A DNA stretch of 64,000 bases from an uncultured Clostridiaceae bacterium (lineage in GTDB: Bacteria; Bacillota; Clostridia; TANB77; CAG-508). Positions 794 through 43,438 of this stretch are shown here, one piece after another. The translations under genes and the position numbers were made by a program. The stretch lies in assembly GCA_947167695.1 (NCBI GenBank), contig CAMVIX010000001.1, forward strand, positions 8,680 through 72,679. Reading direction: 5' to 3'. Numbering within the stretch: the first letter of the stretch is position 1; each line of letters begins with the position of its first letter. The notes under the pieces were generated by a model. That model was not told where the DNA came from and did no database searches. It saw only the letters and a program-made list of their open reading frames with translations.

Positions 794-933
794 TAGACGA
801 AATATAGCAATTTTTCGGTTCAACTGCGGACGCTCCGCTATTTTTCGCAATCAACTTTGGACCAGGTTTTAACCTGCTCCAAAGTTGTGCGAAAAACACC
901 TCGTTTCACCTGCAAAATTCTATATTTCGTCTA
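794..933 (-). mobile_element. MITE-like ~140-bp element, copy A, with terminal inverted repeats TAGAYGAAATATAG
   Basis: About 90% identical to the reverse complement of 30670-30811. The ends are inverted repeats of each other. The central hairpin CTTTGGAGCAGGTTAAAACCTGGTCCAAAG differs from copy B by compensatory changes. A possible 5-bp TTGTT target-site duplication flanks it. Confidence 0.55.
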
Positions 934-986
934 TTGTTATATATAACATTATCCCATCTCCAAAATGTGAAAATTCAGTCAAATAT

Positions 987-1012
987 GGGGACAGGTTTAT
1001 AAACCTGTCCCC
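987..1012. repeat. GGGGACAGGTTTATAAACCTGTCCCC palindrome
   Basis: Perfect hairpin; family members at 16441 and 40122. Confidence 0.6.
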
Positions 1013-1094
1013 ATATTTGCTGAATTTTCAAGCAAAAATAGATTTTCCTTATACATCAAGTAACGAATAGGATAAATCCTGTCCCAGTTACTCA

Positions 1095-2832
1095 CTAACT
1101 TTTGCTTAAAATTTTCTTAATTTCATCATTTCTCTTAACTTTTTTTGTAGTAGTTTTTATTAACTCTTCATGCGATACTATAAGTTTCTTTATGTGTTTG
1201 TATTTTGGGAATTTATTATTCAAAGCTTTTATTTGGTTCCACACTTCAAGTTTTAATTCTCCTTCTGTTAAATTACTGTATTTTTCTTTTATTACTTCCT
1301 CATCATAAACTATTTTTACTGCAAGCATTATGTCGTTTTCATCTTGTTCTTTTGGCTCTCCAAAAACTATACATTCACTAACAAGGTCTAATCCATTTAC
1401 AAGTGTTTCCATTTCTTCTGGAAATACCTTTTTACCATTTTTTAATACTATCAGATTTTTACTTCTTCCAGTTAAAAACAAAAAACCATCTTTATCAAAA
1501 TAACCTAGGTCACCTGTATAAAACCAACCGTCTTTTAAACATTCATTTGTAAGCTCTGGCATTTCATAATAACCAAGCATAATGTTTGGTCCTTTAACAC
1601 GTATCTCTCCAATTCCATTTTCATCTTTGTTCACCACTTCAAGGGTATCATTTATCATTGGGAAACCTACTGAGCCAATCTTCCTTTTCTTTTTACATTC
1701 TGCCGCAATTACAGGCGCTGTTTCACTTAACCCATAACCTTGAAGTGTTATTATTCCTAAATCGTTAAACCCTTTTGTAGAAACTGGTTCTGCAGCGGCC
1801 CCGCCTGATATTACCAATCTTAGTTCTCCGCCTAAGCCATCTAGAATTTTCTTAAACAGCTTTCTCCTTACATCAATATGAAGCTTTAGTAAAAAATTAC
1901 TTATTTTGGTTGCTATTTTAACCATTTTTGTCTTACCTTGCTTCTCCACTTCTTTTACAATTGCCTTGTACATTGCTTCTATAAGAACTGGTACACCAAC
2001 AAATAGCGATACTTTGTATTCTTGCATATTTTGTTTTATGTACCTCAGCCCGTCTGGAAATGTGTTTCTTACTCCGCATGCAAGCATTAAAATAATACAG
2101 GTGGAGCCAAATATATGATGGAACGGAAGAAAGGCTATATTTGTGTCTGTACTTTGTATGTCCTCTACGCACTTAAGCGCGTGTACATTTGATGCAATAT
2201 TCTTTTGAGATAGCATTACAGCTTTAGACTTATCTGTAGTGCCAGATGTAAATAATAGTACACTCATACAATCGCTATCTACTTTGTAGTTTACATATTC
2301 GTTTTCTCCGCTTCTTTATCAGCTCATTTCCTCTATCTATAAGCTCTGCTATTTTTCCCGTCATGCATATATAATCTTTTACATTTGTATTGTTTCTTTG
2401 CTTTATTTCTTGCATAAATTCTTCTAGTTTATCATCATATACTATTGCATCTGCCTTGCTCCTTACAAGAGAATTTTCTAATTCTTCTAGTTGCAAATCT
2501 TTATCAAGTGGAATTGAAACAATTCCACCCATTACATTAGCTAGGTGCGAAAGCACCCACTCATATCTGTTTTTGCCAATTATTGCTATTCTCTTTCCCT
2601 TAAATCCTAGGTTATATAAAGCCGTACCTAGTGCATTTATATCTTCTAAGAGCTTTTTATAGCTAATGTTTGTATAATTAACCTTTCCATCTTCTTTTGT
2701 TTTTATTACAAATGCTGTGTTTTCTCCATATTCTTCAGCTGAGTTAAATATAATTTCCTTAATGTTATCAAATTCCTTTGGATTTCTAAATTTTAGGTCT
2801 TCCATAAAGCTACCACCTTTCTCTTCCAGCAA
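1095..2832 (-). pseudogene. Long-chain fatty-acid-CoA ligase (AMP-binding, FadD-like), interrupted by a +1 frameshift in an A4 run near 2285-2300
   Basis: ORF 2275..2832 is the N-terminal part. ORF 1095..2267 starts at the AMP-binding motif LLFTSGTTDKSKAVML. The two frames rejoin if one A is removed from GGAGAAAACGAA. Confidence 0.6.
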
Positions 2833-2854
2833 CAGGATTTTCCCTGCTTTTTTT

Positions 2855-2878
2855 GGGGACAGGATTTATCCTGTCCCC
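2855..2878. repeat. GGGGACAGGATTTATCCTGTCCCC palindrome
   Basis: Perfect 9-bp-stem hairpin, identical to the copy at 63915 apart from one base. Confidence 0.6.
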
Positions 2879-2935
2879 ATTATTATATATTTATAAATTT
2901 AAAAAATCACTATACCCAGTGGTCAGTTTTGCTTA

Positions 2936-3805
2936 TTATAGCTCACATACATTTTTTATAATAGTATATGATGATTCATTTTGTTTTACATAATATCTGT
3001 GAAGTCTTGATAAATCAAGGGTATTGCTGTAATTAATCAAATCATCTGTTAAATTTTGTATAAACCCTGCTTGTTTCATCTTTTCTATTTGTTCCTCTGT
3101 ATAAGCTCCAAAAGGATATGTAAACACCTTGTTCTTTATTTTGCCTATATTTTTTTCTATGTTTTCATATGCTACGTTTACATCATTTATTAGGGTTTCT
3201 GGTGTTTCTTTGTTATAATATATATGAGTTCTTCCATGAGAATATATACTGATAAGTCCGCTACCTGCCATTTCTTTTGCCTGTTCCCAGTTAAAATAAT
3301 TCTCAGTTCCAACTTGATCATCTACTACATATATTGCTGCTGGAATATTATATTTTTTAAGTATAGGAAATGCATTTGTATAGTTGCCTATCCAGCCGTC
3401 ATCAAAACCTAAAAGTAGAGTTTTCTCCGTTATAGCTTTTTTTCCTTTGCTATACTCTACCAAATTGTCATAGCTAATAAATTGGTAGCCTTCATCTAGC
3501 AGACCTTTAAGTTGCTTTTCAAATTTTTTTGCAGTCGTTTGCATATAAAACTGGTCTCTTGTAGGCTCTTTATTAGGTATTTCATGATATATAAGAATTG
3601 GAATTCTTATATTCTTTTCGTCTTTATAGTACTTTTTATTTTGATCTATGTTTTGATAATAACCCGAAGTTTTTACAACCATAAATGATTTGAAATTTTT
3701 TAGCTCGTCATAAAGTCTTTTTATAAGTGGATTTTTGCCAATAAATAGCAATATAATAACCGCAATTGCTAATATGATAATTCCTAATACTTTAATTTTT
3801 TTCAT
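2936..3805 (-). CDS. Polysaccharide deacetylase (NodB/CE4 family), N-terminal transmembrane anchor
   Basis: NodB-like motifs (ILIYHEI, LLGFDDGW). The start is taken at MKKIKVLG to avoid overlapping dfx. Confidence 0.65.
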   Translation of the reverse strand: MKKIKVLGIIILAIAVIILLFIGKNPLIKRLYDELKNFKSFMVVKTSGYYQNIDQNKKYYKDEKNIRIPILIYHEIPNKEPTRDQFYMQTTAKKFEKQLKGLLDEGYQFISYDNLVEYSKGKKAITEKTLLLGFDDGWIGNYTNAFPILKKYNIPAAIYVVDDQVGTENYFNWEQAKEMAGSGLISIYSHGRTHIYYNKETPETLINDVNVAYENIEKNIGKIKNKVFTYPFGAYTEEQIEKMKQAGFIQNLTDDLINYSNTLDLSRLHRYYVKQNESSYTIIKNVCEL

Positions 3806-3809
3806 TTTA

Positions 3810-4184
3810 TTACTCCACATCTGTTTTCCATAGTCCATGTTTGTTGCAGTATGCATATACTCTCATACCTGGTTTATATTTGCAATGTGCTTTTGCTTCT
3901 TTTCCTGGTTTTAAATATTTGAATACTGTTTTGTTTTTATATGCAAAGGCAATCCATTCAATATAATGTTCTTCTTCCATTACGTGATTAACGGTAACAT
4001 AGATTTTCCCTTCTTTTGTTTCATAAGTTGGCACATGTTTTTCTGCACTTGCATCTACTGAATTTGGAACTAGCGTCTTCATTTCATCTCCGCAACACTG
4101 AATTCCACATGGGCAGTTACAGTCTTCCATAATATGTACTACTGCTCCGCATTTTGCACATTTTTTAATAATTAATTCTTTCAT
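3810..4184 (-). CDS. dfx: Desulfoferrodoxin (2Fe superoxide reductase)
   Basis: N-terminal desulforedoxin CxxCG...CC site and a C-terminal SOR domain (EKHVP..., HYIEWI, CNKHGLW), 124 aa. Confidence 0.8.
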   Translation of the reverse strand: MKELIIKKCAKCGAVVHIMEDCNCPCGIQCCGDEMKTLVPNSVDASAEKHVPTYETKEGKIYVTVNHVMEEEHYIEWIAFAYKNKTVFKYLKPGKEAKAHCKYKPGMRVYAYCNKHGLWKTDVE

Positions 4185-4224
4185 ATTTCTCCTCCTTTTT
4201 GATGTATTATATCATCTTAAAAAA

Positions 4225-4241
4225 GCGGGGACAAGCCCCGC
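4225..4241 (-). terminator. Intrinsic terminator GCGGGGCTTGTCCCCGC + U-run downstream of the htrA-like gene
   Basis: GC hairpin followed by TTTTTT on the minus-strand transcript. Confidence 0.55.
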
Positions 4242-4243
4242 CA

Positions 4244-5387
4244 CTATATTTTTTTAGACAAAATTACTTCTATCGTATACTCTCTATTATTCCTTACAAC
4301 GGTTAGCACGACCCTATCATCAGGACTTTTACTATAAATGTAGCTCCTTAGTTCACTCATTTTTTCTATTTTAGTATCGTCTATTTTGCAAATAACATCT
4401 CCAATTTTAACTCCTGCCTTGCTAGATGGTCCATCTAGTGCAACTTGCGCTACATATACTCCGGAGTCTAAATCTTGTTTTGATTCTATATAAGGAATAA
4501 CCTCCTTGTCATATCCAAATATACCTAAATATGCTTCTTCTACTGATTCGTTGTTTACTAATTTATTTACTATTGGCTTAATAATGTTTATAGGAATTGC
4601 AAATCCTATTCCTTCAGCAGATGTAATTTTTACCGAATTTATTCCTATTACTTCTCCATCTGCATTTATCAGTGGTCCGCCACTATTTCCGAGGGTTTAT
4701 TGTTGCATCTGTTTGTATTAGGTCTTCCATATAAACCTCTTGGCCATTTTCTTCTAGTTTAATAGTCCTATTTTTCGCACTTACTATTCCACCAGTTACT
4801 GTTCGTTGAAATTCAAATCCAATCGGATTTCCTATAGCATACACCATATCAGCTATTTTTACGTTTTCAGAATCTCCAAGTAGCACATATTTTAACCCTC
4901 TTGCATTAATTTTAACAATAGATAAATCTATTTCACTATCTGCCCATATTACGTTTCCACTATATGATTTTCCACTTTCTAGTGTAACATAACAAGTAGC
5001 ATATTTCCCACCTGATACGTGCTCGTTGGTTAGAATATATCCATTATCTGTTATAATTATTCCTGTGCCTAGTCCTAGCTGCGAATTTGCATCACTTAAA
5101 AATACTGTATTTCCTGTGCTTTTCAGTTTAGATATTCCAACAATACTGTGGCTTACATTCTCTATCATCTCACTAATTTCTTGCCCCTTTAATTTGCTTT
5201 CTGCTAAATTTCTATTTAAACTTACATTAGTCTCATTAACTTCTTCTTCAAATGGCTTTATTTCTATTCCTAGATACATGTTATGTAATAAAATACTGTC
5301 TACTGCAACACAAATTACAATTCCAAACAAACTTAAAATTCTCTTTAATTTTGGATGTTTTATTTCTTTTGGTTTATATCTGTACAT
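4244..5387 (-). pseudogene. HtrA/DegP-like trypsin-fold serine protease with a PDZ domain; frameshifted near 4683-4690
   Basis: ORF 4683..5387 contains TNEHV and ...GIVSA...IQTDATINP, then a stop. The unlisted downstream frame continues GNSGGPLINADGEVIGINSVKI..., then a PDZ domain, to a stop at 4244. A 1-nt deletion in the AAA run restores the frame. Confidence 0.6.
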
Positions 5388-5454
5388 AATATACCTCCAC
5401 TATATGGTTATTATTACCAAAAGTCTTCACTCTTAAACATTGTTTCACAACAGA

Positions 5455-5484
5455 TTGACATTTTGTGAATAAACATGCTATAAT
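5455..5484 (+). promoter_or_regulatory. Consensus sigma-A promoter (TTGACA-N18-TATAAT) driving a small RNA
   Basis: TTGACA at 5455-5460 and TATAAT at 5479-5484. There is no plus-strand ORF downstream. Confidence 0.6.
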
Positions 5485-5490
5485 GATAGT

Positions 5491-5577
5491 ACAATAAAAA
5501 GGAATAAGCATACGCTTATTCCCTTGGGTTTTGACTTGATGTTTCTCTTGGCGGGGTAACATCAAGTTCTTTTTTTG
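5491..5577 (+). ncRNA. Candidate ~87-nt antisense sRNA, putative type I antitoxin
   Basis: The transcript predicted from the promoter contains hairpin GGAATAAGC-ATA-CGCTTATTCC (5501-5522) and terminator hairpin ACTTGATGTT...AACATCAAGT + T9 (5534-5576). It is fully antisense to the 3' end of the 35-aa peptide gene. Confidence 0.45.
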
Positions 5578-5669
5578 TTATCTTGAAGCTGTATCCGTAT
5601 TAGGCCGCAAACAAAAACAAGAACTGATAAACATAGAAGCACAAATCCAATTCCAATTAATACGTCCAT
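5562..5669 (-). CDS. 35-aa hydrophobic peptide MDVLIGIGFVLLCLSVLVFVCGLIRIQLQDNKKRT, candidate type I toxin
   Basis: Not in the ORF track because it is under 60 aa. ATG at 5669, TGA at 5562-5564, and SD AAGGGGGTGG just upstream. It has a single transmembrane helix and a charged tail. Its 3' end overlaps the convergent sRNA. Confidence 0.5.
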   Translation of the reverse strand: MDVLIGIGFVLLCLSVLVFVCGLIRIQLQDNKKRT

Positions 5670-5774
5670 AGCACCACCCCCTTTACCATATAGTTAAATT
5701 TAACAATGTATACTTTTATACATTGCTAAATTAGGCCGTATGATGCCATGGGGTGAAGTCAAAACACTTATGTA

Positions 5775-5803
5775 ACATTATCACAATAAATATGTTTTGT
5801 CAA
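5775..5803 (-). promoter_or_regulatory. Candidate promoter (TTGACA-N17-TAATGT with extended TG) for the small-peptide mRNA
   Basis: Read on the minus strand. It would give a ~100-nt structured 5' UTR (hairpins at 5693-5704 and 5704-5725). Confidence 0.35.
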
Positions 5804-5825
5804 TATGTATATGCGAATTTTTGTT

Positions 5826-6461
5826 TTATCTTTTTAATTCTTTTCTGCATTCTTTGTAATTTGGCACGTACTTTTCTACTAAACTCCAGAATTCTTTAGA
5901 ATGATTCATGTGCTTTAAATGGCAAAGTTCATGTATTACTACATACTCAATTAGTTCTTCTCTTTTTTTGATTAGATTCAAGCTCAAAGTAATATTTCTT
6001 TTGCTAGAGCAACTTCCCCATGCTGAATGTATATCTCGTATTTTCCATGAGTCTGGAGCAAGTCCTGTTAGTTCCATCATCTTTTGTGTTGTTTTTGTAT
6101 ACTGCGTTAAAGCACATTTTTTATATAGATTTTTTATCAGTTTTTCTCTTTTCTCGGTGCTGTCTTTGCTGATGTAAATATAGGCTTTTTCGTCTTTAAT
6201 TTCTATGCAGTCTCTATTAGAATTGATTATATTAATTTCATATTTTTCTCCAAGTAGCTCAATATATTTCTCATTATCTTCGTTCTTTTCTTTTTGAACA
6301 TTTAAATGTTTGTTTATCCACTTTTCTTTATCTTTTATTAGCTTTTCTATTTCTTTTTGAGTCATCCTTTTGGGGACTCTAACATATACCTTACCATCTT
6401 TTATTTGTATATACATATTCTTTATGCTTTTTTTAACAATTATATAGTCCATTTCCTCCAC
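5826..6461 (-). CDS. DUF45 / SprT-YgjP-like HExxH metallopeptidase
   Basis: The C-terminal HELCHLKHMNHSKEFW motif is typical of the YgjP/DUF45 family. Confidence 0.6.
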   Translation of the reverse strand: MEEMDYIIVKKSIKNMYIQIKDGKVYVRVPKRMTQKEIEKLIKDKEKWINKHLNVQKEKNEDNEKYIELLGEKYEINIINSNRDCIEIKDEKAYIYISKDSTEKREKLIKNLYKKCALTQYTKTTQKMMELTGLAPDSWKIRDIHSAWGSCSSKRNITLSLNLIKKREELIEYVVIHELCHLKHMNHSKEFWSLVEKYVPNYKECRKELKR

Positions 6462-6493
6462 CCAAAAGAAATTATATCTTTTTTATTAAACTA

Positions 6494-6522
6494 TTGCAAC
6501 TATTTTACTCTTATGCTAAAAT
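6494..6522 (+). promoter_or_regulatory. Candidate promoter TTGCAA-N17-TAAAAT upstream of the NRPS
   Basis: Sequence match only; a second TGACATAAT extended -10 lies at 6533-6541. Confidence 0.35.
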
Positions 6523-6562
6523 AAACTTGAATTTTGACATAATATGTTTAAAGGTGATAAAA

Positions 6563-9500
6563 ATGGTGAAACAGTATTATAAATTAACCAACCCTCAAAA
6601 CTCAATTTGGCAGACCTGTCAGGTATTTCCTAATACATCTATTGGGAATATTTGTGGGACTGTTTTTATAGACGAGAAAATAGATTTTTCAGCTTTAGAA
6701 AAATCCATCAATAAATTTATAGAAAAAAATGATAGTTTTCGTTTAAAAATTGTAATTAACGGAGATGGTCCTAAACAATATGTAAGTAATTTTGTGCCTT
6801 TTAACATTGAAGTTAAAAAAATAGAGTCCGTAGAAGATGTATCAAAGCTGGAAAAGGCTTTAGTTTCATGCCCTTTTTCAGTAGTAGATAATCTTCTTTT
6901 TACGTTTGTAATGTTCGAATTTCCAAATGGTGAAGGTGGTTTTATTATGAATGCACACCACCTTATCGTTGATGCTTGGACTGTTGGTACTGCTCTTAAC
7001 GGAATTATTGAACATTATGAATATTTTACTGATAAACGCAAAGACGTTTCTGAAAGCTATCCATCATATGTTGACTTTATTAATTCTGAAAAAGAATATC
7101 TTGAAAGTGAAAAATATAATAAAGATAAAGAATATTGGGAAAACGCGTTTAAGCAAATTCCAGAATGTGCAACAATTACTGGTTCAAAACAGTCTATAAG
7201 CAATTCCTGCGAAGCTAAAAGAATGGAATTTAATGTATCTAAAAAATATGTTGAAAAAATTAATGAATATTGCAAAGAAAACAAAGCCTCTTTGTATACA
7301 TTCTTCATGGCTGTATATGGATTATATATTAATCGTGTGTCAGCATTAGACGATTTCACTATTGGCACACCTATTTTAAATAGAACCAATTTCAAAGAAA
7401 AACATACTACTGGAATGTTTGTAAGCACAGTTCCTTTTAAATACAATATAAAAAGTGATATAAGCTTTTCAGAATATCTCACTTACATAACTACAACCTC
7501 CCTGGGAATGCTTAGGCATCAAAAATATCCATATTCTCATTTGCTAGCAGGCTTAAGAGAAACAGATTCATCTATTCCTAACTTGTATGATGTTGCTATA
7601 TCATACCAAAATATTAGAAGTAATAAGCAAACAGCAAAAGTAAAATATCACACAAAATGGAACTTTAATAATTGTTTAGCCGATAACTTAAATGTACACA
7701 TATATGACACAGATGATACTGGAAGCCTTGATATTGCTTACGATTATAGAACTTCTATATATAGTGAAAATGATATTTCTATGCTTCACAAAAGAATTTT
7801 AAATTTAATCGAGCAAATTATAGAAGAGCAAAATACAAAACTTAGCGAACTTGAAATTGTTACACCTGATGAAAAAAATTCAATTCTACATGAATTTAAC
7901 AATACAAAACTTGACTATCCAAAAGGTAAAACGATAGTAGAACTTTTTGAGAATCAAGTAGAAAAAACTCCGAACAATATTGCTGTTGTGTTTGAAAATA
8001 AGCAATTAACATATGAAGAATTAAATAAAAAAGTAAATAGCTTAGCTCATTATCTAACAAAAACTGGTGTAAAGCAATATGATATTGTTCCTGTAATGAT
8101 AGATAGGTCTGCGGATTTAATCATTTCTATGCTCGCTATTATTAAAATAGGTGCAGTTTATTTACCAATATCACCAGAAGTGCCAGAAGAAAGGGCTTCT
8201 TATATAATTCGAAATAGCAAAGCAAACTATGTGTTGTCCCAAAAGGATCATCAATGGGGCAATGCAAAAACGGTAGTTATTACTAACGTTGATTATTCGA
8301 AATATAACAATAATAATCTAAATGTTGCAATAGACAATAAAGATAACTTGTACATCATATATACATCTGGAACTACCGGAAATCCTAAAGGGGTAAAAGT
8401 TAGTCATAATAATCTTGTAAACTTTGTATACAGTTTTAATTTTATATATGGAAATATAACCGACGAAGATAGACTTTTGGCATCTACAAATATTTCTTTT
8501 GATGTTAGTATTTTTGAGTGTTTTATGGCTTTATTAAATGGTGCCTCCCTTTACCTTTATGAAGAACCTAATATAAGTAACATATTTGACTATTGCAAAA
8601 ATATAATATCCAACGAAATAACTTTTGCATATATTGCACCTAATATTTTAGATCTTGTTTATAATGTTTTATCGAAAGAAAAAGATGTTAAATTAAATAA
8701 GCTTTTATTGGGTGTAGAACCAATACCATCAAATATTATAAAAAAATATTATTCTTTGAACCCAAATTTTAAAATAGTTAATGCTTATGGACCAACTGAA
8801 ACAACTATATGTGCAACAGCAATTTTATTAAATAAAGATATTTTAAATAGTTATGACATTGTGCCAATAGGAAAACCACTCAATAATTTAAACATATTAA
8901 TTTTGGACAAATTTATGAAATTAGCTCCAGTTGGTGTTCCAGGAGAAATATATATTGCTGGAGATAACGTTTCAAATGGCTATTTAAATAACGAAGAACT
9001 TACTGCCAAATCATTTGTATCAATCCCAACACTTGGTATTGATAGGGCTTATAAAACAGGAGACATTGCAAAATGGGATTATGACGGTATTATAAGCTTT
9101 ATTGGAAGAAATGATAATCAAGTTAAAATCAATGGCCATAGAATTGAGCTAGGCGAGATTGAGGCTTTAATTGCAAAGTTTCCAACAATTAAAAAGGTAA
9201 CTGTAATAAAACAAACCATAAATAAAAGGGACTGTTTATGTGCCTATTACATTTCAGAAGAAAAAGATATTACCAATAATCTTAAAAAATATCTTTCTGG
9301 GTATCTGCCAAAATATATGATGCCTTCATATTATGTTGCTTTAGATAATTTTCCATGCACAGCTAATGGCAAAATTGATAGAAAAAAACTACCACTGCCG
9401 GAAATTATAATGGAAAATAAGGAAATAGTTTTGCCTAGAAATGAAATAGATAGTAAATTAATCGATATATTTAAGAATGTTTTAGGCATAAATGCAATAA

Positions 9501-19191: not shown

Positions 19192-19400
19192 ATTATTCAG
19201 TAACTATCAATGCCTAAATAAAATGCTTGCTAATTTGCTTTCCTTGTAATATAATCTTTTTATGAAAAAACAGGAGAAAAGAATGGATAAAGATGACTTT
19301 GATACTTTTTGTGCATAGTCTTTTCTCTTGCCGTTGCATGCTTTATGACTTATTGCATTGAAAAACCCATTTATAAATTAATAATGAAAGGAAAACCAAA

Positions 19401-21306: not shown

Positions 21307-21313
21307 AATAAAC

Positions 21314-22987: not shown

Positions 22988-23006
22988 AGGAAGGAGTTAA
23001 TATAAA

Positions 23007-24212
23007 TTGAAACAATTTACACAAAATTTATGGAATTTTATTGATAAATATAAAATATGGATTTTTTTCGTAATTATAAGTGTACTTGCAATTTCTTTAA
23101 GGGTTCAGCTATATGATTACTCGTATGGCGATTATGAAATGTTTTTAAAGCCATGGTTTGAAGAGTTACGAACTGGTGGAGGGTTATTTGCCCTAGGCAA
23201 AGGAATTGGAAATTATAATGCTCCATACATGACATTACTTGCGTTCCTTACATATTTACCCTTATCATCTTTGGTGTCTATAAAAACAGTATCAGTTATA
23301 TTTGATTTTGTTTGTGCAATAGCAGTTTTTAAAATCGCACTATATATTTTAAAAGGAAATAAGCACAAAGAAAAAATTGCTTTGTTGCTATATGCTACCA
23401 CATTATTTTTGCCTACTGTTTTCCTTAACTCAGCTTGTTGGGCTCAAGCAGATTCAATATATACAGCATTTATATTGATTTCATTATTATACTTAATAAA
23501 ACAAAAATATGTAAAAGCATTTATATTTTTAGGTATAGCATTTTCATTTAAATTGCAGTTTATATTTATCCTGCCACTATATATATTAGTGTATATTTCG
23601 GAAAGGAAATTTTCAATTTTTCATTTTCTAATTCCAGTAGCAGTAAATTTTGTAATGTGTATTCCTTCGCTAATATTTGGTAATACATTGGAAAATTGTA
23701 TAAACGTATATATAAGTCAAATTGGAACATATAATGAATATATTACTCTTAATTTCCCTAATTTTTATAGTATATTTTTTGGAGGTTCTTCACACCTAGT
23801 TGATACACCAAACGCAGTTATACCACCTGCAGGAATTTTTATTACTTTATTTATATATATTATAATTGCTTTTCTTGTACTATATAAAAAAACCAAGTTC
23901 GACTCCAGAGCAATAATCGAATTTGGTCTATGGTCTGTTATGATAGCCACATTTTTCTTGCCACATATGCATGATAGGTATTTATTTATGGGAGATATAT
24001 TAGCACTTCTTTATTTGCTATTTAATAGGAAAAAATTTTATATACCTGTAATGATAGAATTAATTTCTCTTTATGGATATATGTATTTGCTATTTAGTTC
24101 ATTTAATTTAGAAATGAAATTTGTAGGAATTATGTATTTGGTACTAATAGTGATTTACAGTAAAGATATGTATGAAAAATATTTTCTTGAAAAAACAATT
24201 AAAGATGAGTAG
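23007..24212 (+). CDS. Polytopic membrane protein, GT-C-like (DUF2029/GPI-mannosyltransferase-like)
   Basis: About 10 transmembrane helices; architecture resembles GT87/DUF2029. Confidence 0.45.
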   Translation: MKQFTQNLWNFIDKYKIWIFFVIISVLAISLRVQLYDYSYGDYEMFLKPWFEELRTGGGLFALGKGIGNYNAPYMTLLAFLTYLPLSSLVSIKTVSVIFDFVCAIAVFKIALYILKGNKHKEKIALLLYATTLFLPTVFLNSACWAQADSIYTAFILISLLYLIKQKYVKAFIFLGIAFSFKLQFIFILPLYILVYISERKFSIFHFLIPVAVNFVMCIPSLIFGNTLENCINVYISQIGTYNEYITLNFPNFYSIFFGGSSHLVDTPNAVIPPAGIFITLFIYIIIAFLVLYKKTKFDSRAIIEFGLWSVMIATFFLPHMHDRYLFMGDILALLYLLFNRKKFYIPVMIELISLYGYMYLLFSSFNLEMKFVGIMYLVLIVIYSKDMYEKYFLEKTIKDE

Positions 24213-24221
24213 TGCTTCGCA

Positions 24222-25538
24222 CTACTCATCTTTAATTGTTTTTATTATTTTCTCTATTGTTTCTCTTACCTGTTCTCCTGTTTTCATATTTTTAAGCGTA
24301 TACATTTTTGTTTGTCTTTCTTCTTCGCCTATTATTATGGCATATGGAATTTGCCATTTGTCTGCGTATTTCATTTTCTTTTTTATTTTAGCATCTTCTA
24401 AGTATACATCTGTGTTTATTCCACAGCTTCTTAATTTAGTTGCAACTTGTAGGCTTTCTTCAATGTCTTCATCCATTGGAATTACTACTACATCAGATAT
24501 TGCTTCTTTTTTTACTTTTATTTGATTTATCTCATTTAGCTGATAGAATAGTCTTGTAAGTCCTATAGAAATTCCAACTCCCGGAAGTTTTTTATCTGTA
24601 TAATATTCTGCTAAGTTATCATATCTTCCTCCTGAGCAAATGCTTCCTAATTTTTTATATTCATTTAAAAATGTTTCATATACTGTTCCTGTGTAATAAT
24701 CTAAGCCTCTTGCAATTTTTAAGTCTATATCAAAGTAGTTGTCCGGAAGGCCGAATGCACGTATGTATTTTACAGTATCCCTTAACTCTTGAAGTCCTGT
24801 TTTAAAGGTTTCATCTACTATATCAAGTTTATCAAGCGACTCTAATTTTTCATCTTTATTTCCTTTAATAGAAATAAATTCCATTATTTTTTTTATGTTG
24901 TTTTCTTTTAAACCTAAATTTTTAAGCTCTAAGGCTACTGCTTCTGTCCCTATTTTATCTATTTTATCAATTATTCTTAAAATATCTGCTGCATTTTCAG
25001 TTAAGCCTAAATTATTAAATAACCCATTTAGAATTTTGCGGTTATTTATGCATATTGTAAAATCGTCAAACCCCAGTTCTTTAAATGTATTATATATTAC
25101 AACTGGCATTTGTGCATCATTTATTATGCTTAAATTTTCATCTCCAATTATGTCTATATCGCATTGATAAAATTCACGGTATCTGCCTTTTTGCGCTTTT
25201 TCTCCACGATACACCTTTCCTATTTGATACCTTTTAAATGGAAAACTCAATGCTCCCTCGTATTCTGCTACATATTTTGCAAGTGGTACTGTTAAGTCAA
25301 ACCTAAGTGAAAGGTCTGTCTCGCCTTTTGTGAATCTATATATTTGCTTTTCAGTTTCTCCACCTGCTTTTGCAAGTAACACTTCTGAATACTCAATAAC
25401 TGGTGTATCTAAGGGTAAGAATCCAAAGCGTTCATATGAACGCTTTATAGTTTCCATCATTTCATTAAATTTTATTTGGTCTTGTGGAGAAAGCTCCATA
25501 AAACCTGGCAGTGTTTTTGCTTCGATTTTTTCTTGCAT
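24222..25538 (-). CDS. hisS: Histidine-tRNA ligase
   Basis: Class II motifs (FRxE-like RFDLTVP, GGRYD) plus a C-terminal anticodon-binding domain; 438 aa. Confidence 0.85.
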   Translation of the reverse strand: MQEKIEAKTLPGFMELSPQDQIKFNEMMETIKRSYERFGFLPLDTPVIEYSEVLLAKAGGETEKQIYRFTKGETDLSLRFDLTVPLAKYVAEYEGALSFPFKRYQIGKVYRGEKAQKGRYREFYQCDIDIIGDENLSIINDAQMPVVIYNTFKELGFDDFTICINNRKILNGLFNNLGLTENAADILRIIDKIDKIGTEAVALELKNLGLKENNIKKIMEFISIKGNKDEKLESLDKLDIVDETFKTGLQELRDTVKYIRAFGLPDNYFDIDLKIARGLDYYTGTVYETFLNEYKKLGSICSGGRYDNLAEYYTDKKLPGVGISIGLTRLFYQLNEINQIKVKKEAISDVVVIPMDEDIEESLQVATKLRSCGINTDVYLEDAKIKKKMKYADKWQIPYAIIIGEEERQTKMYTLKNMKTGEQVRETIEKIIKTIKDE

Positions 25539-25560
25539 TTTATCACCTCTTTAGAGTTCT

Positions 25561-25593
25561 TATGGAGCATTTAAGTCGCTCCGCTACGATTGC
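25561..25593. repeat. Inverted partial copy of the 16.5-kb structured element (TATGGAGCATTTAAGTCGCTCCGCTACGATTGC)
   Basis: About 27/32 identity to the reverse complement of 16543-16575. Confidence 0.45.
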
Positions 25594-25613
25594 TCATATA
25601 TTACTTTACACTA

Positions 25614-27005
25614 TTAAAATTCTGCGTATTTTGGTGCTCTTGGGTATGGTATTACATCTCTAATATTCTCCATACCTGTTATATATCTCATCATTCTTTC
25701 TAATCCCATTCCAAAACCACTATGTGTGCATGTTCCAAATCGTCTTAAATCTGTATACCAGCTGTAATCCTCTGGGTTTAATCCCATTTCTTTAATTCTG
25801 TTTACTAAAACATCATATCTTGCTTCCCTTTGACTTGCACCTACTATTTCTCCAAGGCCAGGGAATAGTAAATCTGTTGCAGCAACTGTCTCTCCGTCGT
25901 CATTTACCTTCATGTAGAAAGCTTTTATTCCTTTTGGATAATCTGCAACAAAAACAGGTTTTTTAAAGTATTCATCTGCTAAATATCTTTCATGCTCTGT
26001 TTGGATTCCACCCTCTGTGTCTACAGGAACGCTAAATTCTTTTCCAGATTTTTTAAGTATTTCCATTGCATCTTTATAGCTAATTCTTGCGAAGTTTGAA
26101 TTTGCTACATTTTCAAGTTTTGCAATTAAACCCGGCTCAACAAATTGGTCAAATAATTTTAATTCTAGCTGACAATTATCTAGTACATATTTTATGATAT
26201 ACCTACTTAGTCCCTCTATTGTTTCAATTAAGTCATCTAAATCTGCAAATGCCATTTCAGGCTCTACTTGCCAGAATTCTGCTACATGTCGAGTCGTATT
26301 TGAGTTTTCTGCTCTAAAGCATGGACCAAATGTATAAACTTTTCTATATGCCATAGCAAAAGGCTCCACGTTTAATTGTCCGCTTACAGTCATATATGCT
26401 GGCTTGCCAAAGAAATCTTGTGAATAATCGAATTTTCCTTCTTCATTTAATGGCAAATTATCGAAATCCACAGTTGTAATTTTGAATACCTCTCCTGCTC
26501 CCTCGCAGTCTGAAGTTGTTATACATGGTGTTGGAACATATACGAAGCCATTTTCATTTAAATATTTATGAATTGCATAATTTAAAACAGACCTTACTCT
26601 AAATATTGCAGAAAATAGATTTGTTCTGGCTCTTAAATGAGGAAGTGTTCTTAAATATTCATATGAGTGTCTCTTTTTTTGCAAAGGATAGCTTTGGTCT
26701 GCTAAGCCCTCCACCTCTATTTTTTTAGCTTGAATCTCATACTTTTGCTGCTCATTTGGAGAAAGCACAATATCTCCTAAAACCTTTAAGCAACTACCTA
26801 TTGTTATCTTTGAAATTTCTTCAAAATTCTCTAGTTTATCATCAAATACTATTTGAATTGTTTTTTGAATTGTTCCATCAAACAATTCAATAAAACCTAT
26901 TGCTTTTGATAATCTAGATGTGCGTACCCAGCCTCCAAGATACACTTCTCCAAGTTCGCCTCTATCTGCAATTTCGTATACTTCCTTAATTGATTTAACC
27001 TTCAT
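25614..27005 (-). CDS. asnS: Asparagine-tRNA ligase
   Basis: N-terminal OB fold plus the class IIb catalytic core (FRAE, GLGLERM). Confidence 0.85.
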   Translation of the reverse strand: MKVKSIKEVYEIADRGELGEVYLGGWVRTSRLSKAIGFIELFDGTIQKTIQIVFDDKLENFEEISKITIGSCLKVLGDIVLSPNEQQKYEIQAKKIEVEGLADQSYPLQKKRHSYEYLRTLPHLRARTNLFSAIFRVRSVLNYAIHKYLNENGFVYVPTPCITTSDCEGAGEVFKITTVDFDNLPLNEEGKFDYSQDFFGKPAYMTVSGQLNVEPFAMAYRKVYTFGPCFRAENSNTTRHVAEFWQVEPEMAFADLDDLIETIEGLSRYIIKYVLDNCQLELKLFDQFVEPGLIAKLENVANSNFARISYKDAMEILKKSGKEFSVPVDTEGGIQTEHERYLADEYFKKPVFVADYPKGIKAFYMKVNDDGETVAATDLLFPGLGEIVGASQREARYDVLVNRIKEMGLNPEDYSWYTDLRRFGTCTHSGFGMGLERMMRYITGMENIRDVIPYPRAPKYAEF

Positions 27006-27086
27006 AAGATTGTCCTCCTTTAATTTGTTTTTATTTTATAATATATTTAATAATATTTCAATAAAAATTATTTAAAATCCGCTCCC

Positions 27087-27207
27087 GGGAAGTTATATTT
27101 TTTTCTTTCTCGTTGCCCCATCCTAGCAATTGTAACTCGCTATCGCTCGAACAATTGCTACGGCGGTCACCCCGGAATCACTCGAAGAAAAAAATATGGA
27201 ACTTCCC
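27087..27207. repeat. ~120-bp nested palindromic element in the asnS leader / cysS trailer
   Basis: Outer arms GGGAAGTTATATTTTTTT / AAAAAAATATGGAACTTCCC and inner stem AGCAATTGT...ACAATTGCT. It contains a GGGGTGACCGCCG segment with weak similarity to a T-box. Confidence 0.4.
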
Positions 27208-27270
27208 TCGCGCTACTGTTGAGGCATTTTAGGCATTCATAAGCCAATGTGTGTCCTCTGTTTTAGAGTA

Positions 27271-28734
27271 TTAGTACAATGCCTTCATGTCCCAAACCGT
27301 CCCTTCAGGTGTATCATTCAAAATAATACCCTTTTCGTCTAGTTCTGCTCTTATAGTATCTGCCGTAGCATAGTCTTTGTCTTTCTTTGCGTTGGCTCTT
27401 TTTTGTATTTCTTCTCCAATATATTCTGGATCTAAATTTATTTTTCTTAAATATTTATTTTTCATTTCATTTATAAATTCTGATGGATTTTGTGTAAAAA
27501 ATCCAAGTACACCATAGCATTCTTTTACATCTTCCAATATTTTTGCAACTGTATTTGCAGTAATCTGTCTATTTCCTTTATTTGCCGTTTTCATTATATT
27601 ATTCACATATTTAAAAATAACATGCAAATTTGCAATAGCACTTGAAGTATTAAAATCATCATCCATTGCTTCTATAAACTTTTCTTTTACAGTATTTACT
27701 GTTTCATCTTCTAGTTTTTCCCCACTAGCGTTTCCGTTATAGTTTTGTATAAATTTTTGCATAGCTCCAATTGAGTTGCAGAAATAGTACATGTGTTTCT
27801 CTGCTTGTGTATAGTCTTCATCATGAATATCAATATCTGATGCATAGTGTTTTGAATGCATTACATATTTTAATACTTCATAATTATACATTTTTAAAGC
27901 ATCTCTTATTGTAAGAGAATTTCCAAGAGATTTGCTCATTTTTTCTCCATTTATTTTTATTAATCCGCAATGTGACCAATATTTGGCAAATTCTTTTCCT
28001 GTTAATGCTTCACTTTGTGCTATTTCATTTTCGTGGTGTGGGAATATTAGGTCTCTTCCTCCACCATGTATGTCTATGGTCTCTCCTAGTGTATCTGTTG
28101 CCATTACAGAGCATTCTATATGCCAGCCTGGTCTACCTTTCCCCCAAGGTGAGTCCCAAGATATTTCGCCCGTTTTTGCAGATTTCCAAAGAGCAAAATC
28201 TATTGGATCTTCCTTGCCCGCTTCTACTTCTACACGAACACCATTTAAAAGTTCGTCTATTTTTCTATGTGATAGCTTTCCGTAGTTTCTAAAATTCCTT
28301 ACTTTGTAATATACATCTCCATTAGGAGCTACATATGCCATATCTTTTTTTATCAATCCATCTACAAATTCAATAATCTTGCTAATATACTCCGATGCTT
28401 TTGTTTTAATATCCGCTTCTGTAATATGTAGCCCTGCCATGTCCTTTTCTGTTTCTTCTATTTGATATTTAGAAAATTCTAGTGCATCTTTTCCAAGTGC
28501 ATTTGCTCTTGCAATTATTTTGTCATCAACGTCTGTATAATTTCTAACATATTTTACATTATACCCTCTGTATCTTAAATAATCTGCAATCATTGCGTAC
28601 ACTATTGCTTGCCTTGCATGACCTATATGGCTTAAGTCGTATGTAGTTACTCCGCAGGCATACATTTTAACATTGTTCCCATCTATTGGAACAAATTCCT
28701 CTTTTCTGCCTGTCATTGAATTGTAAATTTTCAT
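27271..28734 (-). CDS. cysS: Cysteine-tRNA ligase
   Basis: HIGH-type CGVTTYDLSHIGHAR and KMSKS. The start is taken at MKIYNS with RBS GGGAGGA. Confidence 0.9.
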   Translation of the reverse strand: MKIYNSMTGRKEEFVPIDGNNVKMYACGVTTYDLSHIGHARQAIVYAMIADYLRYRGYNVKYVRNYTDVDDKIIARANALGKDALEFSKYQIEETEKDMAGLHITEADIKTKASEYISKIIEFVDGLIKKDMAYVAPNGDVYYKVRNFRNYGKLSHRKIDELLNGVRVEVEAGKEDPIDFALWKSAKTGEISWDSPWGKGRPGWHIECSVMATDTLGETIDIHGGGRDLIFPHHENEIAQSEALTGKEFAKYWSHCGLIKINGEKMSKSLGNSLTIRDALKMYNYEVLKYVMHSKHYASDIDIHDEDYTQAEKHMYYFCNSIGAMQKFIQNYNGNASGEKLEDETVNTVKEKFIEAMDDDFNTSSAIANLHVIFKYVNNIMKTANKGNRQITANTVAKILEDVKECYGVLGFFTQNPSEFINEMKNKYLRKINLDPEYIGEEIQKRANAKKDKDYATADTIRAELDEKGIILNDTPEGTVWDMKALY

Positions 28735-28814
28735 CTGCATTCCTCCCTTTTAAAATGTGTTTTACTCTGAGCCAATGGCAGCATTCCTTAGCAGAAGGTG
28801 TGTCCCCTTAGCTC

Positions 28815-28847
28815 AACAAAAAAACTATGTGTTTTTTTCCCACATAG
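28815..28847 (-). terminator. Intrinsic terminator/attenuator inside the cysS 5' leader
   Basis: CTATGTG-GGAAAAAAA-CACATAG followed by U7 on the minus-strand transcript, about 90 nt upstream of the cysS ATG. Confidence 0.5.
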
Positions 28848-29002
28848 TTCTTATAATCTATTTAAAATGAAATATAATCACTATTGCAGGTATGCTAAAA
28901 TTTACTCATATCTACAACAGATAGAGTATTTAACAAAAGCAACAATTATGATTATTATTTCTTTTACTCATTGTTATTTATCCCCTTCAATTTATGTTTA
29001 TA

Positions 29003-29030
29003 TTATATGCGTTTTTTTTAGCTTTGTCAA
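29003..29030 (-). promoter_or_regulatory. Consensus sigma-A promoter (TTGACA-N17-TATAAT) for the cysS leader
   Basis: Perfect hexamers on the minus strand, about 255 nt upstream of cysS. Confidence 0.55.
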
Positions 29031-29096
29031 CCAGATTTGGAAAATTTTATTGTTATACTGCAAATTTCATGCTATAATTTGAGCAGGTGATTCTAA

Positions 29097-30653
29097 ATGA
29101 AAAAAGAAAATATTGAAAAAGTTATTATAGCAGTTTTAATTATTGTTATGCTTGGAGTGATGTTCTTCTTTCAAACCCAGAAAAAAGGCTTTCACGAAGA
29201 TGAAATATATACATCTATTTCTTCTGTAAATCCTTTAAATGGACTTATGTGGGCATATGGAGAACCATGGGAAAATAAGGTTCCAATATGGCTTTCGCGC
29301 GAATACGTAACAGATTTTATTACTTTAAGCAAGGATAATTATTTAAATTTGCAATCCGTATATCAAAACCAAGCATATGATAATCATCCACCGTTTTTTT
29401 ATGCATTAGTGCATTTTTCTAGTATGCTATTTGGTGGACAGTTTACAAAATATAATGTATTTATTGTAAATGCAACCACTTTTGTCCTAAGCTGTCTTGT
29501 AATTTGCAAGATATTTAAGTTGCTTGGCAAAGAAAAGCTACAATATGCAGGACTTATTTTATATGGCCTGTCTATGGGAACTATTTCAATGGTTTTATAT
29601 CAAAGAATGTATATGCTACTTACTTTGTTTGTTTTACTGTATTTGTATTATACTTTTAAAATATACAAAAATAATTTTGCCTTTAGCAAAAAGGATATGA
29701 TTTTTCTAGGAATCATAACTGTATTAGGCTTTTTAACCCAGTATTTCTTTGCAATTTATGCCGTTTTCTTATTTGGATTAATGATAATTCAAATGATTAG
29801 AAAAAAAACTGGCTGGAGAAAAATATTAATCTATCTAGGATGCCATGTCATTTACGCTATAATTGGTGTTTTGCTCTTTATTCCCTGCATAAATCACCTA
29901 CTTTATTCAGATAGAGGAATAACCAATTTAGGCAATGGTGAATTCTTTACACATTGTTGGCAATATTTAGTACACCTTGCATATGCTTTCTCAATTAATA
30001 GTACAAATAGTCTATTACTTGCAGGCATATTAATAATTTTTGCACAGCTAATTATATATTTATTTGTAAAGTCAAAAGACAAATTTATAATATCATTACT
30101 AGTAATTCCTAGTGTACTGTTTTTCTTTGTAGCAGTTAAAATGACCTCCTTTCAGGAATTAAGATATGTTATGCCTATGATACCATTTATAACAATACTC
30201 ATTATATTTGTATTAGATTCTCTTAACTATAAAGAAGTAACCGTAACTATAATTTCTGTTTTGTTGGTATTAGTTGGGTTTATTACCTCAAAACCACTAT
30301 TTTTGTATAGCGATTATCAAAGATGTCTTGATATTGCTGAAGAAAACAAAGATAAGTCTTTTGTGTATGTTTATGATAACTTCTTCTGCCATATGCAGAG
30401 CGTACCTGAAATGATGATTTATGAAAAGTCACTTATTATAAATGCTAACGAAGATGAATTAAAATATGTGATAAATAATGAAGAGTTGAATAGTGAAAGC
30501 TCCTACGTTTTGTGCATTAAAAATTACATGGATAATGAGAACATTATTAATCAGATTAAAGAAAAATCTGATTTTAAAAATGTAGAGCAAATTTATGAAG
30601 GACCTAATTCTCATTATGAGGTTGGTAACAATTTGTATTTGGTAAGTAAATGA
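29097..30653 (+). CDS. GT-C glycosyltransferase, PMT_2/ArnT-like
   Basis: GFHEDEIYT motif after TM1 and more than 10 transmembrane helices. Confidence 0.55.
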   Translation: MKKENIEKVIIAVLIIVMLGVMFFFQTQKKGFHEDEIYTSISSVNPLNGLMWAYGEPWENKVPIWLSREYVTDFITLSKDNYLNLQSVYQNQAYDNHPPFFYALVHFSSMLFGGQFTKYNVFIVNATTFVLSCLVICKIFKLLGKEKLQYAGLILYGLSMGTISMVLYQRMYMLLTLFVLLYLYYTFKIYKNNFAFSKKDMIFLGIITVLGFLTQYFFAIYAVFLFGLMIIQMIRKKTGWRKILIYLGCHVIYAIIGVLLFIPCINHLLYSDRGITNLGNGEFFTHCWQYLVHLAYAFSINSTNSLLLAGILIIFAQLIIYLFVKSKDKFIISLLVIPSVLFFFVAVKMTSFQELRYVMPMIPFITILIIFVLDSLNYKEVTVTIISVLLVLVGFITSKPLFLYSDYQRCLDIAEENKDKSFVYVYDNFFCHMQSVPEMMIYEKSLIINANEDELKYVINNEELNSESSYVLCIKNYMDNENIINQIKEKSDFKNVEQIYEGPNSHYEVGNNLYLVSK

Positions 30654-30669
30654 TTATTATAAAACTTAA

Positions 30670-30811
30670 TAGATGAAATATAGAATTTTGCAGGTGAAAC
30701 GAGGTATTTTTTGTACACCTTTGGAGTCAGCTTAAAAAGCTGCTCCAAAGGTGATTACAAAAAATAGCGAAGCGTCCGCAGTTGAACCGAAAAATTGCTA
30801 TATTTCATCTA
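30670..30811 (+). mobile_element. MITE-like ~140-bp element, copy B
   Basis: TIRs TAGATGAAATATAG / CTATATTTCATCTA and central hairpin CTTTGGAGTCAGCTTAAAAAGCTGCTCCAAAGG, in inverted orientation relative to copy A. Confidence 0.55.
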
Positions 30812-30929
30812 TTATTATAGTAACTTATGTTCTTATAGCAATGATTATAAATATTTTCCCAAACATCTTGATTTTTTGTTGTTTTACTTATATAATTCAA
30901 ATGTAAATTAAAAGAAAGGAAATACATTT

Positions 30930-31985: not shown

Positions 31986-32012
31986 ATGTTGACGAAAATG
32001 AAACAAATATGA

Positions 32013-32058
32013 GCCAAAGGGGACAGTCTTCGCAAAGCGAAGACATGTCCCCTTTGGC
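32013..32058. repeat. GCCAAAGGGGACAGTCTTCGC-AAA-GCGAAGACATGTCCCCTTTGGC palindrome
   Basis: Near-perfect 21-bp stem between convergent genes. Related copies lie at 35149 and 62505. Confidence 0.55.
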
Positions 32059-32075
32059 TTACCTATTTTTTATTA

Positions 32076-39959: not shown

Positions 39960-40035
39960 TGGTGGGCAATCGGGGTCTCGAACCCCGGACCTTCTGATTA
40001 AGAGTCAGCTGCTCTACCAACTGAGCTAATCACCC
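39960..40035 (-). tRNA. tRNA-Lys (anticodon CTT)
   Basis: Cloverleaf folded by hand: acceptor GGGTGAT/ATTGCCC, D-arm GCTC-AGTTGGT-AGAGC, anticodon loop CTCTTAA, T-arm CGGGG-TTCGAGA-CCCCG, and an encoded CCA. A terminator hairpin follows at 39908-39955. Confidence 0.85.
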
Positions 40036-40115: not shown

Positions 40116-40152
40116 CATTTTGGGGACAGGTTTGAAACCTGTCCCCAAAATG
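40116..40152. repeat. CATTTTGGGGACAGGTTTGAAACCTGTCCCCAAAATG palindrome
   Basis: GGGGACAGG family. Confidence 0.55.
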
Positions 40153-40180
40153 ATTGACATCCTTGTTTTTACTTTATTTA

Positions 40181-43213: not shown

Positions 43214-43353
43214 TTTTATATATCCCCCTTAAAGTATTTATTTTTGTCATATTTTGTCGAGTTAAGCATATTATATATTAAATAAAATATTTGTAAAGAG
43301 GTTTTGAGGAAATAAAAATTTTTATTACTAGATATTTTTTTTAGCAATAAATA

Positions 43354-43397
43354 AAACATAGCAATTTTGCAGTTAAACCGCAAAATTGCTATGTTTT
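43354..43397. terminator. Perfect 18-bp-stem bidirectional terminator downstream of ugd
   Basis: AAAACATAGCAATTTTGC-AGTTAAACC-GCAAAATTGCTATGTTTT flanked by A and T runs. Confidence 0.55.
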
Positions 43398-43438
43398 TCT
43401 ATTTAGTTTAAGTGGACACAATTATCTAGTAGCATTTT

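Follow-up and report, generated by a model that had tools for sequence, protein, structure and literature searches.

A probable low-copy, MITE-like palindromic repeat with a three-way hairpin under apparent selection in uncultured Clostridia

Some small bacterial repeats, such as bcr1, ERIC and the REPINs, join mobility to the maintenance of a hairpin by compensatory changes (PMC3184786; PMC3116915). In the Bacillus cereus group, bcr1 is an element of about 155 bp that has no open reading frame (ORF), is flanked by 5-bp direct repeats, varies in its distribution between strains, and adopts a branched, cruciform-like fold that is kept by compensatory changes (PMC3184786). The ERIC or IRU elements of Enterobacteriaceae, together with RUP and Correia (nemis), are imperfect palindromes that measure about 105-157 bp, carry terminal inverted repeats and are found in transcribed spacers (PMC3184786). 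For the ERIC type, effects on mRNA depend on orientation, and a TA abuts the termini (PMC3184786). REPINs have two highly conserved ends, a less conserved spacer and a compensated hairpin that is predicted to form in single-stranded DNA or mRNA, and they form clusters with other palindromic units (PMC3116915). Here, we describe an element of about 140 bp that occurs in two full-length copies, A and B, in a 64-kb stretch of DNA (the window; 30% GC) from contig CAMVIX010000001.1 of an uncultured Clostridiaceae bacterium. We judge it slightly better than an even chance that this element is a low-copy, non-autonomous palindromic repeat akin to miniature inverted-repeat transposable elements (MITEs), whose three-way hairpin has been preserved by selection in a genus-level group of uncultured Clostridia.

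Copy A (140 bp) lies at positions 794-933 on the + strand and copy B (142 bp) at 30670-30811 on the - strand; the strand that is + at copy A and - at copy B is called canonical below. They are recovered by nhmmer with E values of 1.6e-48 and 1.2e-48, and they score 162.9 and 158.9 bits with a covariance model. The comparison DNA, about 200 kb from relatives, brings the number of full-length variants to only four: the other two are the orthologue of copy B in L008 and a copy at a different site (site C) in L024. The original prediction for this stretch had reported two inverted regions that were about 90% identical, and these are real: the identity is 89.4% over the whole length, the likeness goes no further than the termini, and the flanking DNA is unrelated, so that the larger segmental duplication that had also been considered is not found. 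Each copy starts with TAGAYGAAATATAG and ends with CTATATTTCRTCTA. The terminal inverted repeats, which had been put at about 14-20 bp, are perfect over 14 bp and extend to about 31 bp once a bulge and a small internal loop are allowed as mismatches; they are invariant save for one compensated pair. As read from the sequence, the left repeat of copy A (TAGACGAAATATAG) occupies 794-807 on the + strand, with its partner at 920-933, and those of copy B occupy 30798-30811 and 30670-30683. For 20- and 30-mers derived from the ends, 0.00-0.01 matches are expected by chance in the window.

The element has no transposase ORF, the ORFs that cross it are merely mechanical, and its size is within the range of bacterial MITEs (below about 400 bp). 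As had been predicted, copy A is flanked on both sides by TTGTT (789-793 and 934-938, + strand). This is a candidate 5-bp target-site duplication, and the restored target, TGTTATATATAACA, is a perfect palindrome. Other readings of the boundaries were tried and rejected. A TA or TGTA target duplication suits only some of the copies; TA adjoins the GAYG...CRTC termini in copies A and B, and this reading fails in L008 and L024. The likeness between the right flanks of copy A and the L008 copy (TTGYTATA..ATAAC) is too short for an extension of the element and is missing from the other copies. In addition, a half-parS-like GTTTCAC and an IHF-like core, AATCAAC, were noticed by reading alone, form no complete site and were dropped.

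Both copies are predicted to adopt the same fold on either strand. The termini pair into an outer stem, which closes a three-way junction that carries a GC-rich side hairpin of 5 bp and a long central one. In RNA form, this structure reaches -60 to -69 kcal/mol (z about -11; -59.8 kcal/mol and z -10.8 for copy A), and for both copies none of 200 shuffles is equally stable; as single-stranded DNA, it reaches -35 to -41 kcal/mol (z -8.5 to -11.7). Helix 1, made by the termini, has 26 pairs, all of which are paired in the four variants. Helix 2 is the side hairpin, GCGGACGCTCCGC followed by TATTTTT (826-838 on the + strand in copy A; 30767-30779 on the - strand in copy B), and only on the canonical strand does it look like a terminator. 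At pair 36/43 of this helix, copies A and C have G-C and both B copies have G-U. The central long hairpin (841-897, + strand, in copy A; 30706-30766 in copy B) is the variable part of the element. The ends are the most conserved portions, with mean identities of 91% and 95%, and the centre is the least conserved, with 81%. The core of the central hairpin resembles the GGGGACAGG hairpins that occur elsewhere in the window, with a weak match to 40117-40156 (E 0.015).

The case for selection made in the original prediction had started from a central difference in which, read on the strand opposite to the canonical one, copy A has CAGGTTAAAACCTG and copy B has CAGCTTAAAAAGCTG. This compensatory difference is present, and compensation is broader than was reported. 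Copies A and B differ by four clean double substitutions plus one at the apex, and at least four compensatory pairs between them are obtained by chance in only about 1/10,000 simulations. A covariance model, which had been proposed as a check, was built from the four full-length variants (A, B, the L008 copy of B and the L024 copy at site C). In this alignment, 98.1% of cells are paired, versus 37-50% when partners are slid by one to three columns. Six pairs, five of them in the central hairpin, have changed on both sides among the four variants, a count reached by at most one of 500 shuffles, and no pair within the two long helices shows one-sided variation.

The clearest view of how the element evolves comes from the B copies of the window and L008, which are 94.4% identical and lie 118 and 119 nt from the start codon of a gene for an HD-GYP response regulator (RR). 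The relatives are not close strains: between the same two genomes, the RR protein is 95% identical, whereas the DNA is 85% identical in the RR gene and 79% in the gene for a 518-aa membrane protein on the other side of the copy. At four-fold sites, identity is 65% in the RR gene and 51% in the 518-aa gene (two genes only), and the spacer that adjoins the B copies is about 60% identical. Eight substitutions are seen between the B orthologues, against about 60 expected at the neutral rate (P about 1e-22), and even set against the entire RR gene, conservation of the element is higher (P = 7e-4). Moreover, differences affect 10 of 37 unpaired columns but only 1 of 106 paired ones (Fisher p = 4e-6). 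In L008, two adjacent changes (TC to GA) convert a 2x2 internal loop into a perfect 8-bp stem, GGTGAAAC/GTTTCACC. The B copy of the window is nearer to that of L008 than to copy A of its own genome; therefore, homogenisation or concerted evolution is not the cause of this similarity. On these sequence comparisons, the fold of the element is under purifying selection, in agreement with the original proposal.

Homologues of the RR and of TetR, which flank the element, are abundant in metagenome assemblies, where the few named ones are metagenome-assembled genomes (MAGs) called 'Clostridia bacterium'. To judge from their labels, the source samples seem to come from the ruminant gut. At site A, the spacer between an AMP-dependent ligase gene and the TetR gene, 34 bp separate the ligase stop from the TetR start in L014, L015, L016, L017 and L018, versus 406 bp in the window. 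What they lack is a block (726-1094; about 369 bp) built as a mosaic of hairpin repeats, with copy A inside it. It contains a 24-bp GGGTACAGG...CCTGCACCC hairpin (GGGTACAGGATTTATCCTGCACCC; 760-783), the element, a 63-bp near-perfect palindrome with a GGGGACAGG core (968-1030) and a degenerate second copy of the 24-bp hairpin (1068-1085). The 63-bp palindrome belongs to a separate repeat family and is 87% identical to L008:11915-11976, at an unrelated locus in another species; a compensated change from GGGG/CCCC to GGTG/CACC is seen in the core of these palindromes.

Site B, the spacer between the 518-aa membrane-protein gene and the RR gene, is filled in the window and in L008-L013, six contigs that come from different samples, represent one other species and are identical including their flanks. 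L006, L007 and L019-L024, from five species, have neither the 518-aa gene nor the element at this site. L006 and L007 were rejected as a clean empty site for B, as their gene content differs there. The region between cysS and the RR gene (28741-30929), with copy B at its RR-proximal edge, varies in gene content across the genus: the 518-aa membrane protein, which has no Pfam match, is encoded in the window and in L008, a 530-aa gene lies on the other strand in L022, and there is no gene in L006, L019, L023 and L024.

Site C is the spacer between the gene for a 463-aa tRNA synthetase and cysS. It holds a full copy in L024 only (L024:7826-7966; nhmmer E 1.4e-40) and no element in the window (27006-27270), L022 or L023. 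The window was rejected as a clean empty site for C, given that an adjoining segment of 135 nt is inverted in L024. A structured segment, 98-137 nt long, is found once per locus between cysS and the synthetase gene (window 27079-27215; L024:7997-8132; L022:6044-6141) and in L024, in the opposite orientation, adjoins the site-C copy. Its ends are strongly conserved (TAGCGCGAGGGA...CCCGGGAGCGG), its interior is variable, its closing stem is compensated, and it has no Rfam match at E<=1.

A fourth site, D (43349-43402), is located upstream of prs and holds the outer stem only, a near-perfect palindrome of indeterminable orientation. It matches, at 38 of 43 positions, the product of an in-silico deletion in copy A between CTGC at element positions 31-34 and CTGC at 117-120; the score of 59 compares with 30 for the best of 2000 shuffles and 29 for the best match elsewhere in the window. 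As judged from this alignment, site D arose from one copy by deletion between the two 4-bp direct repeats. The result has the anatomy of an intrinsic terminator, with an A-run, a 21-bp stem and a T-run. The derivative is seen in the window lineage only, with unrelated hairpins at the orthologous position in L008 and L006; in effect, each of the three lineages has its own, unrelated terminator hairpin upstream of prs (window 43213-43440; L008:12985-13188; L006:18461-18625). Neither solo ends, solo centres nor further deletion derivatives were found beyond site D in the window and the DNA of the relatives. Weaker matches to the covariance model (20-47 bits, in L024, L008 and the window) were considered as family members and rejected, being unrelated long palindromes.

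Thus, copies A and B are not an isolated pair without empty sites, as the original prediction had allowed they might be: site A is empty in four relatives, site C is occupied in L024, and a derivative is present at 43349-43402. The occupancy of the four sites differs from genome to genome, and the boundaries are sharp and lie at inverted repeats; taken together, at the level of sequence, this is the signature of a unit that has moved.

At sites A, B and C, the genes on either side of the element are co-directional; the element follows the stop codon of the upstream gene, and about 20-60 bp separate it from the promoter elements of the downstream one. These predicted promoter elements are a retained TGCTATAAT at TetR, TTGATT-17-TATAAT at the RR gene and, in L024, TTGCAA-17-TAGAAT ahead of the synthetase gene. 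In all cases, the downstream promoter is faced by the same end of the element, and at the three full-length sites the canonical strand runs antisense to the genes on both sides. On the sense strand of these genes, no stem of the full element is followed by a U-tract; the combination of a GC-rich stem and a U-tract that marks an intrinsic terminator is present on the antisense strand only. In the direction of the flanking genes, T-runs in effect precede the central hairpin and A-runs follow it, opposite to the layout of a bidirectional terminator.

These observations can be joined in a tentative mechanism. The unit has landed at four or more unrelated intergenic sites, and a transposase provided in trans, recognising the near-invariant ends, would have moved it or may still move it. 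Copies that were retained would be tolerated, and are probably useful, owing to their place between an upstream gene's 3′ end and the next co-directional promoter. With this location and a single orientation at the three full-length sites, read-through from upstream would end in a very stable structure devoid of a U-tract, which might serve as a barrier to 3′ exonucleases, as a spacer or as an insulator of the promoter. On the antisense strand, the terminator-like hairpin and its T-run would stop transcription coming back from the region of the downstream promoter.

Several points weigh against a mobile, MITE-like repeat. A single orientation at three of three sites is expected by chance one time in four. 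None of the empty-site comparisons corresponds to exactly one element, since the block at site A is a 369-bp mosaic and site C is rearranged. Copy number appears low, with three sites in the window and, in the DNA of the relatives, no more than the B orthologue and a single copy at site C. No 5-bp repeat equivalent to TTGTT is found at copy B or at the L008 and L024 copies. The window, which carries housekeeping genes, a nonribosomal peptide synthetase (NRPS) and glycan-synthesis clusters, encodes no transposase or recombinase, and no insertion sequence (IS) with matching ends was found, the terminal-repeat pattern being missing from viral contigs. Finally, searches of genome, metagenome, viral, phage and plasmid collections returned no copy, although the negatives for genomes and metagenomes are weak, as they depend on a pattern placed on a variable stretch. 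This pattern, GCAATTTTNCGGTTYAACTGC, overlaps a part that differs among the copies (L008 has GGTGAAAC). Its one match in the genome collection is in a Planctomycete MAG of 69% GC, and its four metagenome matches are inside coding or GC-rich DNA; all were rejected as chance. In the viral collection, it has no match, and three better patterns are also missing from viral contigs. With blastn, the 140-mer gave no match in 72,556 plasmids and 50,697 phage records. The MITE-like character claimed in the original prediction stands for size, inverted repeats and dispersal with presence and absence, but strict MITE status is not established, as the direct repeat exists at copy A only and neither a transposase nor a parent IS was found.

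A further reading, possible although doubtful, is that the element is more than a tolerated mobile repeat: a domesticated three-way-junction module, selected by the host as structured RNA or DNA between co-directional genes, where it would shape transcript ends or block antisense transcription. If so, its conservation across species would be at the level seen for first and second codon positions, and the cis-acting elements of gut or rumen Clostridia would include a class not yet described.

A rather unlikely possibility is that the copies are duplicated, independent genes for structured non-coding RNAs, or cis-regulatory RNAs, in which the inverted termini are simply a closing helix and no transposition has taken place. 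In its favour are the strong purifying selection on both the pairing and the sequence of the stems, the low copy number and the lack of a nearby transposase. The canonical strand also carries the terminator-like hairpin and T-run (on this reading, an RNA of about 50 nt would end at the GCGGACGCTYCGC hairpin), and the G-C to G-U change in helix 2 would be tolerable only with the canonical strand as RNA. Furthermore, a promoter-like TTGCTA-16-TATAAT is located just outside copy B, upstream of its canonical 5′ end. Nevertheless, this site was rejected as evidence of a gene, since it is not kept in the L008 orthologue; nothing comparable precedes copies A or C, and no conserved promoter for an independent transcript was found. 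At the gathering threshold, Rfam has no family for the element, with only a tRNA matched in the window, and even a permissive search returned only generic long-hairpin microRNA models (12-33 bits against thresholds of 65-211). Gene duplication, moreover, seldom copies a unit bounded exactly by an inverted repeat into unrelated spacers of different species, and the 5-bp direct repeat at copy A does not fit it.

It is unlikely, too, that the element is REPIN-like or IS200/IS605-like, that is, moved as single-stranded DNA by a Y1/HUH (RAYT-like) transposase. In this case, the hairpin would be selected at the DNA level because such enzymes recognise folded DNA, and no target duplication would be expected, as is seen for three of the four copies. 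The single-stranded DNA fold is stable enough (-35 to -41 kcal/mol), REPINs are likewise described as having conserved ends and a more variable, compensated centre (PMC3116915), and the lineage is rich in other palindromic repeats, some of them clustered like BIMEs. However, the arms are not paired self-palindromic REP units, as only the left one has a small hairpin, there are few copies rather than hundreds, the window encodes no Y1 transposase, and no common tetra- or pentanucleotide precedes the insertions on the 5′ side. Selection for transposability, besides, cannot explain the conservation of one resident orthologous copy.

Very improbable is a neutral, decaying repeat in which compensation results from quasipalindrome template-switching, with one arm copied onto the other. 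This process is known to make imperfect inverted repeats more perfect (PMC7202029), and the adjacent TC to GA change in L008 looks like a single templated event. In such a model, paired positions would still evolve almost neutrally, yet only 1 of 106 has changed while nearby four-fold sites are 35-49% diverged, and conservation of the element exceeds that of the complete RR gene. By these counts, a neutral decaying repeat is ruled out. Template-switching is likewise ruled out as the sole explanation, because copying from arm to arm would still let paired sites change nearly neutrally through double substitutions, although it may account for single events.

Chance similarity, or a remnant of segmental duplication, can be practically dismissed, with E values of about 1e-48, unrelated flanks, copies at other loci in other genomes and nothing found in its favour.

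The neighbourhood of the element is populated by further palindromic repeats. Hairpins of the GGGGACAGG-loop-CCTGTCCCC type constitute a recurrent intergenic family, present in the window at 760-783, 987-1012, 1068-1085, 2855-2878, 16440, 40122-40146 and 63915-63938, and also in L008, L014, L015 and L024. The original prediction had placed intergenic GGGGACAGG palindromes beside both copies; they do lie beside copy A, but for copy B the nearest are those at 16440 and 40122, with none within about 9 kb. On either strand, the hairpin at 40122-40146 is preceded by a T-run and followed by an A-run, opposite to the layout of a terminator. Between the convergent RR and Tex genes, the window has a 50-bp palindrome (32011-32060) and L024, at the same position, an unrelated, near-perfect one of 131 bp (L024:11065-11195; -117 kcal/mol); to judge from such cases, orthologous sites seem to exchange one long palindrome entirely for another. 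In L008, a composite repeat of about 115 bp occurs twice in opposite orientations (L008:6298-6413 and L008:11663-11801). It is made of a small GTGAAAAC..GTTTTCAC hairpin, a long GGGGACAGG palindrome and a AAAAATCGATTTTT tail. In the window (16476-16595), the tail (GATTTTTCTTTTGAAAATAAAA) recurs near 16575-16600.

Regarding the genes of the window, three are split in two ORFs: the AMP-dependent ligase (1095-2267/2275-2832), Tex (32076-32636/32581-34266) and a 7TM histidine kinase (14001-15032/14998-15837). The ligase is split in the same way in L014 (173+392 aa), Tex is also split in L006 (161+550 aa), and intact versions are found in other relatives (ligase, 574-576 aa; Tex, 713-729 aa; kinase, 677 aa in L019). 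The split genes could be frameshifts, pseudogenes or assembly errors. Four genes for aminoacyl-tRNA synthetases are present (17087-18085, 24222-25538, 25614-27005 and 27271-28740), and no T-box leader is detected in the window at the Rfam gathering threshold, the only RNA match being a tRNA at 39963-40035. Missing T-box leaders are unexpected for a Firmicute. A 2509-aa ORF at 6494-14023 is syntenic with an NRPS in the relatives, which in L014 and L017 comprises Condensation, AMP-binding, PP-binding and reductase domains.

Small palindromic repeats are usually dismissed as junk or as a nuisance for assembly. Here, a resident copy is 94% identical across two genomes whose synonymous sites are near saturation, and its changes spare the paired positions. 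This is unusually direct evidence that a MITE-like repeat can be kept for its structure. The element also offers a defined candidate of 140 nt for the mapping of transcript ends in an uncultured lineage. In addition, a lineage in which several families of palindromic repeats turn over at orthologous spacers may serve as a natural system for the origin, nesting and decay of repeats.

With regard to known systems, the element resembles intrinsic terminators in the full anatomy of site D and in the side hairpin with its T-run, and differs from them in that the complete element lacks a U-tract on the sense strand. It shares with REPINs a pattern of conserved ends and compensated centre; by contrast, its arms are not REP units, its three-way junction is asymmetric, its copies are few, and no RAYT gene is seen in the window. 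The ERIC, RUP and Correia elements are alike in size, inverted repeats and intergenic location, and TA adjoins the termini in copies A and B as it does in ERIC; however, their hosts belong to an unrelated phylum, their sequences are not similar to it, the TA reading does not hold for the L008 and L024 copies, and no parent IS is known here. From bcr1, the element differs in that its direct repeat is found at one copy only and its copy number looks much lower; furthermore, repeated loss of stability is reported for the folds of bcr1, whereas the fold described here is tightly conserved at an orthologous site. The likeness to bcr1 is one of described features, and with blastn the element had no match in the plasmid and phage collections. 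The element can thus be filed as belonging to a known kind of repeat rather than to any named family, and bcr1 is its closest analogue, with a Firmicute host, a similar size, a variable distribution, a compensated branched fold and a 5-bp direct repeat like that of copy A.

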